DNA from: a virus
Lineage: Duplodnaviria; Heunggongvirae; Uroviricota; Caudoviricetes
Direction: 5' to 3' (one strand)
Virus record (IMG/VR): IMGVR_UViG_3300028887_000082
DNA length: 57,047 nt
Below are positions 5,221 through 54,385 of this stretch, piece by piece. The translations under genes were made by a program, and so were the position numbers. Under the pieces are notes generated by a model. It searched no databases and was not told where the DNA came from. It saw nothing but the letters and a program-made list of their open reading frames with translations. The number at the start of each line of letters is the position of its first letter. The first letter of the stretch is position 1.

Positions 5221-5252
5221 TTTGGATATTTGAAATAAATTCATTATCTTTG
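5221..5252 (+). promoter_or_regulatory. Bacteroidota sigma70-type promoter
   Basis: TTTG (5221) - 20 nt - TATCTTTG (5245). Confidence 0.75.
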
Positions 5253-45740: not shown

Positions 45741-46202
45741 ATGAGTAAGTTAGAGAACAAGATCCAGGAGGATATGGTTGAGGCAATGAAGAACAAGAAT
45801 GAGTTTGTACGTGATACACTCAGGATTGTCAAGAGTGAGATAGGTGTCTTCAAGACCAGTGAGAAGTTCATCAAGAGAAATACTGAAATCACAGATGATG
45901 ATATTCAGGGTATCCTTGAAGAGATGGTCAAGAGGAACAGAAAGAACATTGACACAGCGAAGGCCGCAAACCGTGATGACATAGTAAAGAAGAATGAGGA
46001 TGAGATTTCAGTCTTTGAGAGTTATCTCCCAAAGAAGATGACTGAATCAGAGATAGAGGAGGTTGTTGTGAAGACCATCCAGGACCTGGGTGCAACATCA
46101 ATGAAGGATATGGGAAAGGTAATGGGTTTCATCACCAAGACATATGCCGGAAAGGTGGATGGTTCAGTTGTTTCAAAAATTGTGAAGTCTAAACTTGGTT
46201 AA
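45741..46202 (+). CDS. GatB/YqeY domain protein
   Basis: IQEDMVEAMKNK...LPKKMTESEIE...MKDMGKVMG...GKVDGSVVS. Confidence 0.88.
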   Translation: MSKLENKIQEDMVEAMKNKNEFVRDTLRIVKSEIGVFKTSEKFIKRNTEITDDDIQGILEEMVKRNRKNIDTAKAANRDDIVKKNEDEISVFESYLPKKMTESEIEEVVVKTIQDLGATSMKDMGKVMGFITKTYAGKVDGSVVSKIVKSKLG

Positions 46203-46551: not shown

Positions 46552-47334
46552 ATGATTGTCGAACAAATGGATAAACCCAAGTATCATTATTTCTATAAAA
46601 TAACAAATAGACTCAATGGACATTATTATTATGGTGTTCATTCAACATATAATCTTGATGATGGATATATGGGGTCTGGAAAAAGATTACATATTGCTTA
46701 TAAGAAATATGGTATAGAATGTTTTGAAAAGGAAATTTTAAAATTTTTCAATACCAGAAAAGAATGTGAGGAATATGAAGAATCAGTTGTTAATGAAATA
46801 TTGATTGGTGATGACAATTGTTATAATTGTGTACCTGGTGGAGGAACTTTAAAAACTCCAGGAAAAGCATGCTTCATTGATGAAAATGGTAATATTATAC
46901 AAGTAACCACAGAAGATGCACATAAGAGAGGATTAAGAGGTAATGCAGTGGGTACAACATTAGTAATTGTTGATGGTGAATATGTTATGGCTGATGTTGA
47001 TAAACTTAATGATTATGATTCATTTAAGTATCCTATGAGTGGAAAAATAACAGTATATGACAAAAATAATAACCATTATGTTGTAAGTTGTGATGATAAA
47101 AGATATATTTCTGGAGAATTAAGACCATTCTGGTCAGGTAAAAAACTTTCAGAGGAAACAAAAACAAAAATTAAAACATCACTATCACTAATACATCATC
47201 AACAAGGTGAAAAAAATTCTCAATATGGAACTTGTTGGATTACTAAAAATAATGAAAACAAGAAAATTAAAAAAGAGAATTTAGAAACATATCTTAATGA
47301 TGGTTGGGTTAAAGGAAGATTTATAAAACACTAA
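46552..47334 (+). mobile_element. free-standing GIY-YIG (Seg-like) homing endonuclease
   Basis: YFYKITN...YYYGVH...GYMGSG; NUMOD3-like KKLSEETKTKI; AT-richer than neighbours. Confidence 0.8.
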
Positions 47335-47352
47335 ATGTGTTAATGATATATA

Positions 47353-47662
47353 GGTCTTGTTGATACTTTCAGGAAAAACTGTAGGACACGGGTTCGAGTC
47401 CCGCTACCTCCACAAATTTATATTTTTTATATGGGGGTATATTGGTTTTGACTGCTTTTAAGTATGGGAAGAGGAGAGGTCTATCGCCAATAACTGGCAA
47501 AAACAACAATTTCTCTGTAAACTTTGGCCCTGTTGCACAAACAGCTGCTCCAAAGGCTATGATGGCTGCCGCTTAATCGTGGTTTCCCTGATTAGTAAGT
47601 ACACTGGCCAGGCTGGTGTCACAGAAGGTTCTATCCATCTTGTCCAAAAAGATGGATCTTTT
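47353..47662 (+). ncRNA. ssrA: circularly permuted two-piece tmRNA
   Basis: T arm plus 3' acceptor TACCTCC-A (47405-47412) precedes 5' acceptor GGGGGTA (47433); G3:U70; ATAACT|GGC resume; tag 47496-47576 GKNNNFSVNFGPVAQTAAPKAMMAAA*. Confidence 0.88.
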
Positions 47663-48398: not shown

Positions 48399-49040
48399 AT
48401 GAAGAAATTTTTGGCGTTTCTTATGAGCCTTGTGCTCATTTTCGGTTTGAGTTCATGTAACTCTTGCACAAGAAACCAGACTACTCCTACTGAAGAGACC
48501 ACACCGGCAGTTGCTGAGTTGGTTGTTGAGAATGTAATCTCTACTGACCGTCAGGCAATGTACCTTGCACATGGTGGTGACTACAGATGGTATGAGACTG
48601 GTGTTCAACTCAAGGACTGGCTTGATGAAGAGAATGATGGTACTATCGATATGGTAGTTAATGTTTTCCAGGTAATTGAGGAGTATGATTCAACAAGTTT
48701 TGATACCTATGTTTACAAGTATCAGCATTTTTCAGATGGTACTGTAAATGAAGATGGTGTTCATGGTTTCTGGGTTGAGGATTATCCTCTTGAACAGGAA
48801 GTAATTAAGGTAACATTCAAGGAAGCTTACCAGAAGATCCAGGAAGTTAATCTCCCAAGACCTCATTCACGTCAGGTTGTATTGAGAAAGCCTATCGGTC
48901 CTAAGGATTGCAATCCACAGTGGATATTTGGTAATCTCCATGAGCAGATTTGGGTTGATGCAGTTACAGGTGAAGTTACTAACAGTAACCCTGCATTTGA
49001 TGGTCTGAATCTCGGTACTCCACTTGGTGAGTGGCCCTAA
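48399..49040 (+). CDS. putative lipoprotein
   Basis: Signal MKKFLAFLMSLVLIFGLSSC. Confidence 0.8.
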   Translation: MKKFLAFLMSLVLIFGLSSCNSCTRNQTTPTEETTPAVAELVVENVISTDRQAMYLAHGGDYRWYETGVQLKDWLDEENDGTIDMVVNVFQVIEEYDSTSFDTYVYKYQHFSDGTVNEDGVHGFWVEDYPLEQEVIKVTFKEAYQKIQEVNLPRPHSRQVVLRKPIGPKDCNPQWIFGNLHEQIWVDAVTGEVTNSNPAFDGLNLGTPLGEWP

Positions 49041-49052
49041 TAGAAACAATAT

Positions 49053-49115
49053 AGGTTGAATGGTACAACCTGAAGTTAAATATCCACAGGGAAAGGGTTA
49101 GCCCTGGAAGTTAAA
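49053..49115 (+). repeat. two tandem hairpin-GAAGTTAAA modules
   Basis: AGGTTG/CAACCT+GAAGTTAAA and CAGGG/CCCTG+GAAGTTAAA. Confidence 0.45.
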
Positions 49116-49127
49116 GTCACCCAATAC

Positions 49128-49252
49128 TATGATGTGACAAGGAATAGGTATACTTGCGCCACGAGATAATATCAGATGGAAGAAGAGGAAGGGTATTCTT
49201 CATAAAAGTTGGACTAATTTAGTCAATGTGGGTTCGAGTCCCACTATCATAG
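49128..49252 (+). ncRNA. tRNA-shell RNA with expanded anticodon region (125 nt)
   Basis: TATGATG/TATCATA-G acceptor, CAAG/CTTG D stem, variable hairpin, GTGGG-TTCGAGT-CCCAC. Confidence 0.6.
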
Positions 49253-49259
49253 CAAATAT

Positions 49260-49333
49260 CGTGGGGTGCTAGCAGTGGTCAGCTAACTGGGCTCATAACC
49301 CAGAGGTCAGGGGTTCGAATCCCTTCCCCGCTA
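49260..49333 (+). tRNA. trnfM: initiator tRNA-fMet(CAT)
   Basis: C1:U72 mismatch, CTGGG-CT CAT AA-CCCAG (three G-C pairs). Confidence 0.88.
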
Positions 49334-49341
49334 CTAAACTT

Positions 49342-49479
49342 GCCAGTATAGGACAGTATATTGGACATCTGTAACCTCATGGGAGGTCGCAAGAGAGAAT
49401 GAAGGTAACATCTTCAACGTACCGGGTTAGTTCAAAGTAGAATACTCTTGTTATGTAAGTTCGATTCTTACTATTGGCA
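49342..49479 (+). ncRNA. tRNA-shell RNA with multi-hairpin insert (138 nt)
   Basis: GCCAGTA/TATTGGC-A acceptor, GTAAG-TTCGATT-CTTAC T arm, CAAGAG/CTCTTG inner stem. Confidence 0.6.
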
Positions 49480-49508
49480 CAAAAAAAAATAAAAAAGTTT
49501 CAAAAATA

Positions 49509-49540
49509 TTTGGTAGTTTCAAATTTTTTTGTTATCTTTG
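49509..49540 (+). promoter_or_regulatory. Bacteroidota sigma70-type promoter plus boxA-like element
   Basis: TTTG (49509) - 20 nt - TATCTTTG (49533); AAGTTCTTTGA 49550-49560. Confidence 0.8.
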
Positions 49541-49588
49541 TAGTGTTGAAAGTTCTTTGATAGTTTTAAATAAAACAAGGGTGGGTTT

Positions 49589-50654
49589 CTCATCCTTCCC
49601 AAGAAGCCTTCGGGTTGAGGGAGAAAGATAACCAGTGAATACATAAGCTGGGAAAGTCAGTAAGATATTGCATAGTATCCCTGGCGGAGGGTTCAAATCC
49701 TCCCTGTAAGAAAACCAAGATGGTCAGCATATCCTGGAATGGCAGTACACTGTGAAAGGGGTATGCGGAGGCTCTTACCAAGTCTCCTTGAGTGGTAACA
49801 CTGACAAGAACCATTTTGCTTCCGGACAAAAAGATTACCGGTCTGATTGTCTGAATGACCAAAGTTTATTGATATCCAAGAGACTACACCAAGTCTTCCT
49901 AACAGGTGGTGCTGAGATTCCAGAAATGGTTGGATATTAGAATTAGTAGAATGAGTAACACAGAGGTGTGTGAAAGTAGAAAGGTGATGTATCTAAACCT
50001 CTCAAAAGGAGGCATGATAACAAGGGTAACCTCATCTTTCAATCGGTAAATGCTCAATGATTCAAATTGGATGTTGACCAAAGACAGAATAATTAGATTA
50101 TTAAGCAAGCAAAAGTGTTACCCACACTGTAGGACAATACAGTTATGCTTCTGTAAGATGAAGCCTTATGGATCCCGCAAAGTGAAGTAAGAGTATCGCC
50201 AGTATGGACAATGCAAGTGGAGGCATCCACTCAACTCGGCAGAGGTCTTTGGCTTGAAAGCAGCTATGTAATACAGTGTAGTGACTATGGTAGTCTTGGT
50301 GGAAACACCATAAATCCACCTGTATCCGCTTCACCAATAGCAATGTTGGTGTGTGTAAATCTCAGGCGACTGGGACTTGTCCTGAAAAGGAAGAGAGTAG
50401 AGGCGGCGATTGGGGTCAACACTCAGCCCAAATCAATGAATTATTCAGAGTCGGTAACCAGTCCGGTATGGAAGAGCGAGACTTCCCTGGATAACAAAGT
50501 GATATTATAGAGGTACAAATTCTCCTGAATATATAGAACCACTCAGGAGGTTAATTCGAGGCCAGGGATATTACTGAAACAAATTCCCTTTTGGTTCACA
50601 GGGAATGGGAAGAGTGAGTTTGTAATCTGCGAGGTCGGGTTAGTTTTATCTCTT
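49589..50654 (+). ncRNA. giant (~1.05 kb) structured ncRNA candidate, GOLLD/ROOL-like
   Basis: No credible ORF; ends pair (49589-49601 with 50606-50618, 12 of 13); UUCG and GAAA tetraloop hairpins; internal T-loop; own promoter; in tRNA array. Confidence 0.65.
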
Positions 50655-50659
50655 CAAAT

Positions 50660-50733
50660 GGTGCGTTGGTGAAGTTGGTTATCATGCCACCCTGTCACGG
50701 TGGAGTTCACGGGTTCGAGTCCCGTACGCACCG
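50660..50733 (+). tRNA. trnD: tRNA-Asp(GTC)
   Basis: CCACC-CT GTC AC-GGTGG, G73. Confidence 0.93.
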
Positions 50734-50900
50734 CACATAAATATTATGTAAAGAACCATACCGCAATTTTAAACAAATTTCATTTTGATTGAAGAAACCA
50801 TTGGTTCTTGTTTCGTTTCTTTGTTTAGAAAAACAAAGTGGCAGAGACTGGTGGAAACACCCCTCTTGTGAGTGGTAATCTCACATACAAAAACTTGCCG

Positions 50901-50980
50901 GCTATACCCTGGAGGTAAAGGTGTCACAGGCCTATGCATGGGCTGTTTGCAGTACTGGTTCGAATCCAGTCTGGGTAGCA
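50901..50980 (+). pseudogene. degenerate tRNA-like element
   Basis: ACTGG-TTCGAAT-CCAGT T arm, bulged acceptor, extended central hairpin with ATGCAT; preceded by small hairpin cluster 50839-50899. Confidence 0.45.
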
Positions 50981-51003
50981 AATAAAAATGAAAATTGAAT
51001 TTA

Positions 51004-51011
51004 CATAAATA
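51004..51011 (+). promoter_or_regulatory. CATAAATA late-promoter motif upstream of leader 2
   Basis: Same context as leader 1. Confidence 0.55.
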
Positions 51012-51031
51012 ACTTATAAAGATTAAAAATT

Positions 51032-51148
51032 ATGATGACATTGCATACACATATTATGTTTATTGCGGGCAAGCCAGGTTGTTATCGTTTTTGGGAACAG
51101 AAGCAACTCGGACCTAAAGGTGTGTGGGTATGTCACCAGGATAAATAA
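51032..51148 (+). CDS. attenuator leader peptide 2 (38 aa)
   Basis: MMTLHTHIMFIAGKPGCYRFWEQKQLGPKGVWVCHQDK*; GVWVC codons form the antiterminator strand. Confidence 0.75.
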   Translation: MMTLHTHIMFIAGKPGCYRFWEQKQLGPKGVWVCHQDK

Positions 51149-51248
51149 GGATTAAACCAGGATAGGAAAGAAGGTACAGGAAATCCAACAAATATCAATA
51201 GAGACATCTCACACAAATCCAAAAAAAGATTTATGTGAGATTTTTTTT
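51122..51248 (+). terminator. attenuator 2: antiterminator 51122-51134/51203-51214 versus terminator 51206-51248
   Basis: GTGTGGGTATGTC pairs with GACATCTCACAC; ATCTCACACAAATC/GATTTATGTGAGAT plus T-tract. Confidence 0.78.
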
Positions 51249-51256
51249 ATTAACAC

Positions 51257-51331
51257 TGGGTAGTACGGTAATTGGTTCACCGGCTGCATTTGGGATGCAG
51301 ACATATGCGAGTTCGAGTCTCGTCTACCCAA
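51257..51331 (+). tRNA. trnP: tRNA-Pro(TGG)
   Basis: CTGCA-TT TGG GA-TGCAG. Confidence 0.88.
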
Positions 51332-51356
51332 CAAATATACAAAACAAAATAAGATT

Positions 51357-51602
51357 ATGGAGACACTCAAACAGATTGTGAAGGGAAGTGCAAAGTTGGA
51401 ATGCATGAGGAGTGGTGGTGTCGCAGAATACATCATCACATCAGAGACAGGAAAAAGATATGTATTGGACATAGACCTGTCAGACAAGGTGGACTGTGGA
51501 GAGAGTGCTTCATTTATGCCATACTATGAGAGAGCAATAATCCTGATGCGATGGATTCGCAGAGCAATGGAGAAGGGTGAATTGATAGAGTTAAATTCAT
51601 AA
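51357..51602 (+). CDS. hypothetical protein
   Basis: Clean ORF between RNA genes. Confidence 0.7.
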   Translation: METLKQIVKGSAKLECMRSGGVAEYIITSETGKRYVLDIDLSDKVDCGESASFMPYYERAIILMRWIRRAMEKGELIELNS

Positions 51603-53677: not shown

Positions 53678-54385
53678 ATGAAATTAGGAAATTTAAAGTA
53701 TCATTATTTTTATAAGATAACCAACAATATAAATGGTCATTTTTATTATGGTGTTCATAACACAAATAATTTAGATGATGGTTATATGGGTAGTGGTTTA
53801 AAATTACAAGAAGCATATAAAAAATATGGTATTGAAAACTTCACTAAAGAAATATTAAAGTTCTTTGACACATCTGAAGATGCATTTAAATATGAAAGTG
53901 AGATTGTTACAATTGATTTAATAAAGTCAAAGAAATGTTATAATATTCAACTTGGTGGTAAATCCATTAACACTTCTGGTTTAATTGTTGTTATTGATAA
54001 AAATAATATAAAAACATTAATACCAAAAGATGATGACAAAATAATAAAAGGTAATGTGAAAATTTATTCTCCTTTAAAAAATAAATTGGTTGTAAAATAT
54101 AAAAATGATAATGATTATTTTTTAATTAATAGTGATGAATATGATTCTAACATTTATGAAACAAGTTGGACAAATAGACATCACACACAAGAATCAAAAA
54201 GTAAAATAAGAAAGACTTTAACACCTCAAAATTCTAATAATTCACACATATGGATTAATAAAAATGGGATAGTTAAATATTTAGATAAAAGAAAATTAGA
54301 TGAATATTTAAATGATGGATGGACATTGGGAAGAAGTGGATATAAACCAAGAAAGGGATGTAGAGGTAAGAAAATAGAAATATAA
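53678..54385 (+). mobile_element. free-standing GIY-YIG (Seg-like) homing endonuclease
   Basis: YFYKITNNINGHFYYGVH...GYMGSG; NRHHTQESKSKI; paralog of 46552 gene; very AT-rich. Confidence 0.8.

Follow-up and report, generated by a model that had tools for sequence, protein, structure and literature searches.

A probable divergent GOLLD-class RNA, scoring below the Rfam curated threshold, in the tRNA island of a rumen phage

The RNA island and the signals upstream of the candidate RNA

The stretch of DNA analysed here (57,047 nt, referred to as the window) belongs to an IMG/VR virus record of 153.6 kb (IMGVR_UViG_3300028887_000082). Because this record is estimated to be only 64% complete, the source virus is probably a jumbo phage. 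Between 43.4 and 55.7 kb the window carries an RNA island, in which 31 tRNA genes and a permuted tmRNA were identified with ARAGORN and Rfam. Upstream of the island are located the genes for a CCA-adding enzyme, an RNA-ligase-like protein, NAMPT and an NAD-dependent ligase. The candidate RNA lies inside this phage tRNA array, between a tRNA-like element on its 5' side and tRNA-Asp on its 3' side (Table 1). The tRNA-like element (49342-49479) retains intact acceptor and T arms, with insertions of 36 nt in the D region and 51 nt in the anticodon loop, and scores 26.7 bits with RF00005, slightly below the gathering score of 29. The circularly permuted tmRNA (47355-47576; RF04321, 56.4 bits, above the gathering score of 47) is also found in the related loci L040 and L047. 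Proteins encoded inside the island (45741-46202, 46552-47334 and 53678-54385) include a YqeY-like protein (PF09424, E 5e-40) and two GIY-YIG endonuclease-like ORFs, both weak and under the Pfam cut-off.

In a sequence-only reading, positions 49589-50654 had been described as a non-coding RNA of about 1.05 kb with its own promoter and boxA but without a credible ORF. The longest ORFs in this stretch are 99 codons (50211-50510) and 90 codons, and in every relative the region homologous to the 99-codon ORF is interrupted by in-frame stops, indicating the lack of a conserved ORF. The fold of 49585-50427 exceeds chance in stability (z = -4.05 against dinucleotide shuffles), and the evidence from relatives, described below, is much stronger.

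The promoter motif was found 12 times in the window (both strands) against 2.7 expected, and none of 100 shuffles reached 12. On the plus strand, nine copies of a 32-nt motif with fixed spacing, TTTGG..N..TTGTTAT(C/A)TTTG, start at 5221, 12582, 17854, 19644, 23286, 31970, 43274, 46460 and 49509, and these nine copies probably map the transcription units of the phage. Three of them (43274, 46460 and 49509) lie in the RNA island. The consensus of Bacteroidota sigma-A promoters is TTTG at -33 and TAnnTTTG at -7, and 49509-49540 matches this consensus; a generic sigma-70 scan stayed at chance level. The host is probably a member of the Bacteroidota. Among 13 close and mid relatives, nine carry the motif 33-37 nt upstream of the RNA, whatever lies further upstream. 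The distance is 78 nt in L033 and L048, while L039 and L047 are without the promoter, the RNA there coming directly after a tRNA. A boxA-like element (GTTCTTTGA) lies 3' of the promoter and is kept 15-25 nt before the RNA in relatives, including the promoter-less L039 and L047. Both upstream elements of the sequence-only reading are supported by their conservation in front of the RNA.

The leader hairpin reads GGGCGGG/CUCGUCC in L023, L055 and L039, in place of GGGUGGG/CUCAUCC. A consensus fold also suggests pairing of 49579-49588 with 50312-50321, which is compensated in L039/L047 and mismatched in L023 and L055; an unconstrained duplex search of the leader against the 3' domain gave no consistent signal. 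In L033 (742-830), L048 and L053, the 5' leader carries an inserted or partly duplicated segment, which accounts both for the leader hairpin segment appearing twice and for the promoter lying 78 nt instead of about 34 nt upstream. In distant members (for instance L027, L019 and L051), a leader motif, UAGAAUAAAC, looks by eye in the duplex output complementary to GUGUUCUAG, located immediately after the UACC...GGUG hairpin of the 3' domain, and this might be a long-range contact.

Table 1. Positions in the window of the candidate RNA, its parts and its neighbouring signals
Feature	Position	Strand	Basis or remark
Promoter motif TTTG-N20-TAnnTTTG	49509..49540	+	Above chance in window; conserved in relatives
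boxA-like AGTTCTTTGA	49551..49560	+	In 5' leader of the presumed primary transcript; putative function
Leader hairpin GGGUGGG-UUU-CUCAUCC	49579..49595	+	Compensatory U:A to C:G in L023, L055, L039/L047
Clade-specific 5' domain, about 400 nt	49579..49978	+	Close-family profile HMM reaches distant loci through it; many compensatory pairs
Hairpin with near-invariant 10-nt loop GAAUACAUAA	49632..49651	+	Covarying stem
Hairpin read earlier as T-arm mimic	49686..49703	+	Stem covaries (4 pairs with double changes); loop variable
Four-way junction of 5' domain (model R1), 103 nt	49716..49818	+	Covariance model and covariation
3' domain, 451 nt	49979..50429	+	RF02032 model positions 1-416; helices covary within clade
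AU-rich variable linker (GOLLD J13/15 equivalent)	50041..50102	+	Sequence and length poorly conserved among relatives
3' subdomain (models R2, R3)	50123..50281	+	Closed by long-range helix 50123-50131/50272-50281
L21a-equivalent hairpin	50215..50232	+	GGCA loop in 27/27 members; stem covaries
3' tail, about 225 nt, four local modules	50430..50659	+	Local folds; some compensatory changes in six long-form copies
Tail module E1	50441..50494	+	Conserved, covarying GGAAG-AGCGAGA-CUUCC hairpin
Tail module E2	50498..50575	+	Holds CUCCUGA/UCAGGAG hairpin
Tail module E3	50584..50607	+	Local module
Tail module E4	50609..50655	+	GAAGAG (50609-50614)/CUCUUC (50650-50655) around covarying hairpin
tRNA-Asp(GTC)	50660..50734	+	ARAGORN and Rfam; directly 3' of the element; same tRNA there in all close relatives

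Relatives of the RNA and their match to the GOLLD model

About 30 distinct relatives were collected from rumen phage and metagenome contigs. With the neighbouring ORF (48399-49040) as an anchor, 15 viral loci were obtained, and YqeY as an anchor added one more record; the RNA was present in only two of these 15 + 1 records, and the YqeY-anchored locus gave no GOLLD match. Both records with the RNA (345 kb, 87.6 bits; 170 kb, 74 bits) match RF02032 over the full model below threshold. The 345-kb record is syntenic, with 81% identity across all 1,281 bases from the promoter to tRNA-Asp. Since exact 20-23-mers from the RNA recovered one relative or none among viral contigs, a degenerate signature was built from what three copies (window, 345 kb and 170 kb) have in common. 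With this signature, 34 metagenome contigs were detected, together with a further viral contig of 411.6 kb, the third to carry the RNA besides the 345-kb and 170-kb records. The relatives fall into identity tiers of 75-87%, about 67% and about 52%. In 185,579 species-representative bacterial and archaeal genomes the signature gave 0 matches, the clade being absent at that stringency only, and blastn of 49480-50760 against GenBank phages returned the flanking tRNA-Asp alone.

Under permissive filters, the Rfam model of GOLLD (RF02032) was aligned to 49979-50429 over its entire length (model positions 1-416 of 416; 77.2 bits, E 7e-20). Against the whole 153.6-kb record, the same model detected one locus only (E 1.7e-21). 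The curated gathering score of RF02032 is 150 bits, and the window match thus reaches about half of the cut-off; no Rfam family attained its gathering score over the candidate RNA. All of the approximately 22 relatives scanned also gave a full-model match (64-96 bits, E 1e-14 to 1e-24), and every score, in the window and in these relatives, was below the gathering score. As controls, ten classical GOLLD RNAs from viral contigs were examined with the identical pipeline and scored 180-302 bits. For ROOL (RF03087), OLE and all other Rfam families, no match was obtained at E up to 10 within 49300-50800, again with permissive filters. The sequence-only reading had proposed a GOLLD-like or new giant RNA and had pointed to the GOLLD, ROOL and OLE models: its GOLLD-like character is supported by the full-length match, repeated in every relative tested, and by a tRNA-island setting as in GOLLD, while that match is sub-threshold and those to ROOL and OLE failed to appear.

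In the opposite direction, a profile HMM of the clade showed no similarity to classical GOLLDs by nhmmer. Likewise, the model of the 5' junction (R1), run with default filters, gave no hit at E up to 1 in 11 loci with the classical signature, of which 10 are confirmed GOLLDs. With filters off, the clade model of the 3' subdomain (R3) was aligned to the two most divergent classical GOLLDs at non-significant scores (L063, 13.4 bits, E 0.48; L060, 8.2 bits, E 6.1). Judged from these sequence comparisons, the relation to classical GOLLD is detectable in one direction, from the Rfam model to the clade.

These results might be taken for an independent new family of large phage RNA, whose likeness to GOLLD, limited to a few motifs and helices, arose by chance or convergence and to which GOLLD biology is not transferable. 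The scores of all members below the gathering score, the lack of sequence similarity in nhmmer, the non-significant reciprocal search and a 5' domain not found in classical GOLLDs are all in agreement with such a family. However, full-model coverage at the above E-values in every member is far from chance, and the order and sizes of the domains, the position of the linker, the occurrence of tRNA inside it and the tRNA-island context are all the same. Furthermore, the sole full-length reciprocal alignments, those of R3 in L063 and L060, are located within genuine GOLLD cores at the corresponding position, and the 5' domains of GOLLD have already been described as variable (PMC12286853, PMC12990946). 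Because of this variability, relatedness of the 5' domain is a weak criterion of membership. We therefore regard an independent family as improbable.

Instead, the locus is likely to encode a divergent GOLLD-class RNA in the tRNA island of a rumen jumbo phage, below the Rfam curated threshold, and the 3' domain is, with good probability, homologous to the GOLLD 3' domain. The wording 'divergent GOLLD-class clade' was chosen because the scores are half the threshold, profile similarity is lacking and the reciprocal model scores are weak. As a distant relative of the cage-forming GOLLD, the clade would be a new branch of a known RNA class rather than a new kind of RNA.

Covariation in the 5' and 3' domains

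A consensus fold of the close family (13 close and mid relatives) contains 274 pairs, 95.5% of them canonical. Double-sided changes were observed at 98 pairs, against a mean of 56 and a maximum of 70 in shuffled alignments. When the family-wide MAFFT alignment (about 52% identity) was used, RNAalifold lost most helices of the 5' domain, and therefore covariance-model alignments were employed. With the junction model R1, every one of the 27 clade sequences examined was recovered, even the most distant ones (27-123 bits, E 5e-6 to 3e-39), and the 3'-subdomain model likewise finds 27/27 members (45-199 bits). In the R1 alignment 97.9% of the cells are paired (63.9% in shuffled and 38-48% in slid registers), with 27 of 31 pairs changing on both sides, and in the 3'-subdomain alignment of the 27 sequences 91.5% are paired (75.3% shuffled, 36-50% slid), with 28 of 46 pairs changing on both sides; both alignments were fitted to their own models and are thereby biased toward structure, the margin over the slid controls still being large. 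The covarying homologs that the sequence-only reading had called for are represented by these approximately 30 relatives, with strong covariation in both domains.

Within the 5' domain, the helix closing the junction (49716-49725/49808-49818) is long-range and covaries. The hairpin at 49632-49651 changes its stem from CCAG/CUGG to CCUG/CAGG, CUGG/CCAG, CCAA/UUGG or CUGA/UCAG, while its loop is almost unchanged. Of the hairpins pointed out earlier, C(UUCG)G is real (GCC-UUCG-GGU, 49606-49615). The supposed T-arm mimic survives as a hairpin with a kept and covarying stem but not as a mimic, its loop varying among GUUCAAAU, AGUUUU, GUUU and a 25-nt insert.

Within the 3' domain, six pairs of the first stem (49979-49987/50032-50040) and four pairs of the long-range helix that closes the subdomain show double changes. 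The helices matching the Rfam consensus include the first stem with the UCAAAAG-loop hairpin, the AAGCAAAAGU strand, the long-range helix and the CGCAA hairpin, followed by a three-way junction with two small hairpins, the UAC...GUG hairpin and the terminal CUCAGCC hairpin. Two GAAA-capped hairpins noticed in the first inspection, GGUG-GAAA-CACC (50298-50309) and CCU-GAAA-AGG (near 50380-50390), were both found to be real. The former covaries to GACA-GAAA-UGUC, and it appears to replace the classical hairpin before the last subdomain. Since the GGCA loop is present in 27/27 members over a covarying stem, the self-complementary GC of L21a is kept; the mapping to env-38 numbering was made through the model position (the cGCAA loop of the model) and is approximate. 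In classical GOLLD, the self-complementary GC/CG of L21a forms the inter-subunit kissing contact B8 (env-38; PMC12286853).

The linker carries a tRNA in two distant members, L026 (GOLLD-like match 192-653, tRNA-Ile at 282-353) and L041 (match 1760-2135, tRNA at 2062-2133), and the classical GOLLD L060 likewise has a tRNA inside.

Extent of the RNA, the 3' tail and comparison with known cages

The stretch was found in many bovine and sheep rumen and gut datasets, including 11 RNA runs. RNA contigs of four runs, from four independent rumen metatranscriptome studies, were compared over 48900-51400 at a likeness of at least 90%. A single contig of 843 nt covers 49585-50427 in X8, and one of 822 nt covers 49607-50425 in X13. 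In X9, two contigs (49616-50317 and 50288-50399) were obtained, and in X14 the cover extends over 49733-50436, with 14 additional strain-variant bases. For X8, X9 and X13, the depth directly on either side (49404-49571 and 50496-50663) is zero, and in X14 the depth is about 530-820 in the core against 3-20 in the flanks. Flanks that are empty or far below the core argue against DNA carry-over and for an abundant and stable RNA of about 843 nt. The abundant RNA is thus approximately 843 nt long, as given by the extent of the assembled contigs, and ends where the GOLLD model ends. Assembled contigs cannot prove the strand or the ends of a transcript, and the coincidence of their ends is a weak hint; strains diverge in sequence right after the core, and the contig ends may therefore mark branch points between strains. 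A terminator scan detected no terminator-like site inside 49600-50700.

The DNA between the core and tRNA-Asp is occupied by the tail, which was compared among relatives that are 79-89% identical elsewhere. The tail is complete in L018, L023, L031, L040 and L044, cut to E1 alone in L033, L046, L048 and L055, and absent in L029, L049 and L056, where tRNA-Asp begins about 20 nt after the core. A profile search with the tail gave matches only directly after the core, never free-standing, and no Rfam family matched it. None of the RNA contigs of the four runs lies over 50496-50663. As the contigs were selected at a likeness of at least 90% and strains differ in this part, the lack of cover hints only weakly that the tail is outside the abundant RNA. 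The CUCCUGA/UCAGGAG hairpin of the first inspection is real and lies within the tail (50522-50549).

In the sequence-only reading, the tail was part of one RNA of about 1.05 kb (49589-50654), held together by two long-range helices between its ends and longer than typical GOLLD. The complementarity is indeed present in the window (12 of 13 positions of the first helix, 49589-49601/50606-50618), no terminator or promoter is located between core and tail, and the tail is always attached to a core. However, the 5' strand of the first helix covaries with its local partner in the leader hairpin, and L023 changes both proposed strands to a non-pair (G-A) while the local hairpin is compensated. In addition, the 5' strand is kept unchanged in the tail-less L029 and L049, and the outer 3 bp of the helix exist in the window only. 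As to the second helix (49620-49634/50638-50654), the 3' strands of the two proposed helices pair with each other in E4. Both long-range helices were rejected because of the local covariation, the retention of the 5' strand in the absence of the tail and the pairing of the 3' strands in E4. The RNA contigs end at 50399-50427 in three studies and at 50436, apart from the strain-variant bases, in the fourth. Since these contigs cover about 49585-50427 and not the flanks, the abundant RNA is GOLLD-sized, and a 1.05-kb RNA is very unlikely. The greater length holds at the DNA level alone: the expressed RNA of about 843 nt is close to the 833 nt of env-38 (PMC12286853), and the extra 225 nt or so are optional.

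The modular organization of the tail could also suggest that a string of separate small structured RNAs, instead of one RNA, is arranged between the tRNAs. Single RNA contigs of 843 and 822 nt, however, cover both domains, the long-range helices 49716-49725/49808-49818 and 50123-50131/50272-50281 covary, and at about 30 loci both domains are invariably present, in the same order. We consider such a string extremely improbable.

With a divergent GOLLD-class RNA as the preferred reading, the most likely start of transcription is immediately 3' of the conserved promoter (49509-49540), and the transcript would pass through the boxA-like leader and yield a stable RNA of about 843 nt (about 49585-50427). 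This RNA would consist of the clade-specific 5' domain of about 400 nt and the putatively GOLLD-homologous 3' domain of about 450 nt, with the AU-rich variable linker placed 3' of the first hairpin of that domain. If the solved GOLLD structures are taken as a guide, a homo-oligomeric RNA cage may be formed, in which the 3' domains would make the ring and the 5' domains the cap, the invariant GGCA loops being candidate inter-subunit kissing contacts. The lineage-specific, modular tail of about 225 nt would be co-transcribed and then is probably removed or unstable, the RNA presumably maturing from a longer precursor, and an RNase P cut at tRNA-Asp would set the end of the primary product. A role in infection connected with tRNA or translation, in line with the speculation on GOLLD in general (PMC12286853), may be envisaged.

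In env-38 GOLLD, the variable 5' domain (P1-P13) comprises residues 1-420 and the universally conserved 3' domain residues 421-833 (PMC12286853), and the disordered linker between the domains can hold a tRNA (PMC12286853, PMC12990946). GOLLD RNAs are phage-encoded near tRNA islands and assemble, depending on construct and species, into cages of 10, 12 or 14 subunits (PMC12286853, PMC12990946; structures of env-38 and S. agalactiae GOLLD). The rumen clade shares the full-length match to the conserved 3'-domain model, a two-domain layout of about 840 nt (about 400 + 450 nt against 420 + 413 nt in env-38), the variable linker after the first 3'-domain hairpin, sometimes with a tRNA, the location in phage tRNA arrays, the conserved loop with self-complementary GC at the L21a position and the abundance in RNA libraries. 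In contrast, it scores 64-96 bits against the cut-off of 150 and the classical 180-302, without sequence-level similarity, and its 5' domain shows no detectable relation to the classical one. It differs also in the GAAA-capped hairpin apparently replacing the classical one, in two extra hairpins in the variable insertion, and in the optional 3' tail of 90-225 nt in some members.

ROOL (RF03087), first found in cow rumen and forming RNA-only cages, is likewise a large ornate phage-associated RNA near tRNAs, but its secondary structure is unlike that of the candidate RNA, which, as described above, gave no ROOL match. The GOLLD RNA (Rfam RF02032) was reportedly described by Weinberg et al. in 2009, and its occurrence in Mycobacterium tRNA arrays is said to have been reported by Morgado et al. 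in 2020 (cited in PMC12286853 and PMC12990946). The Mycobacterium members likewise lie within a tRNA array and in some cases hold a tRNA in the linker, but were reported as standard family members from Actinobacteria, whereas the rumen-phage clade is sub-threshold. We know of no GOLLD for which a function has been established.

The GOLLD class, its tRNA-island context and its variable 5' domain are already known. What is new is a coherent clade of about 30 sequences missed by the Rfam threshold, with its own well-supported 5' domain, a remodelled 3'-domain hairpin, an optional modular 3' tail and evidence of high abundance in rumen RNA. Published GOLLD censuses were based on NCBI bacterial genomes and GenBank phage genomes (PMC12286853). 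A search of the literature for GOLLD together with Bacteroid* gave nothing relevant. The clade is invisible at the Rfam curated threshold, and the searches of about 185,000 species-representative genomes and of GenBank phage records described above gave no member; it would extend GOLLD-class RNAs to jumbo phages with hosts that are probably Bacteroidota.

Only a handful of natural RNAs, GOLLD among them, are known to assemble by themselves into cages free of protein. The stoichiometry of the GOLLD cage is altered by small secondary-structure changes (PMC12990946). The clade, which couples the conserved 3' domain with a different 5' domain, offers a natural variant with which the contacts that determine the size of the cage can be studied, although by itself it does not reveal what GOLLD RNAs do. 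A more far-reaching reading, which taken as a whole we hold to be possible but rather unlikely, is that of a distinct GOLLD lineage, in which an unrelated 5' cap and a remodelled 3' domain would build a cage differing from the 10-, 12- and 14-mers in stoichiometry or geometry. The tail (E1-E4) would then be a functional add-on, for instance a decoration on the outside, a module for docking or processing linked to the tRNA that follows, or a separate RNA released from the shared precursor.

So far, the clade is seen solely in rumen phage and metagenome contigs with Bacteroidota-type promoters. In one rumen metagenome contig (L042), a match to the type III hammerhead ribozyme was observed at 837-895 (42.6 bits, E 6e-6, below the gathering score of 48.5), about 2 kb upstream of the GOLLD-like RNA.
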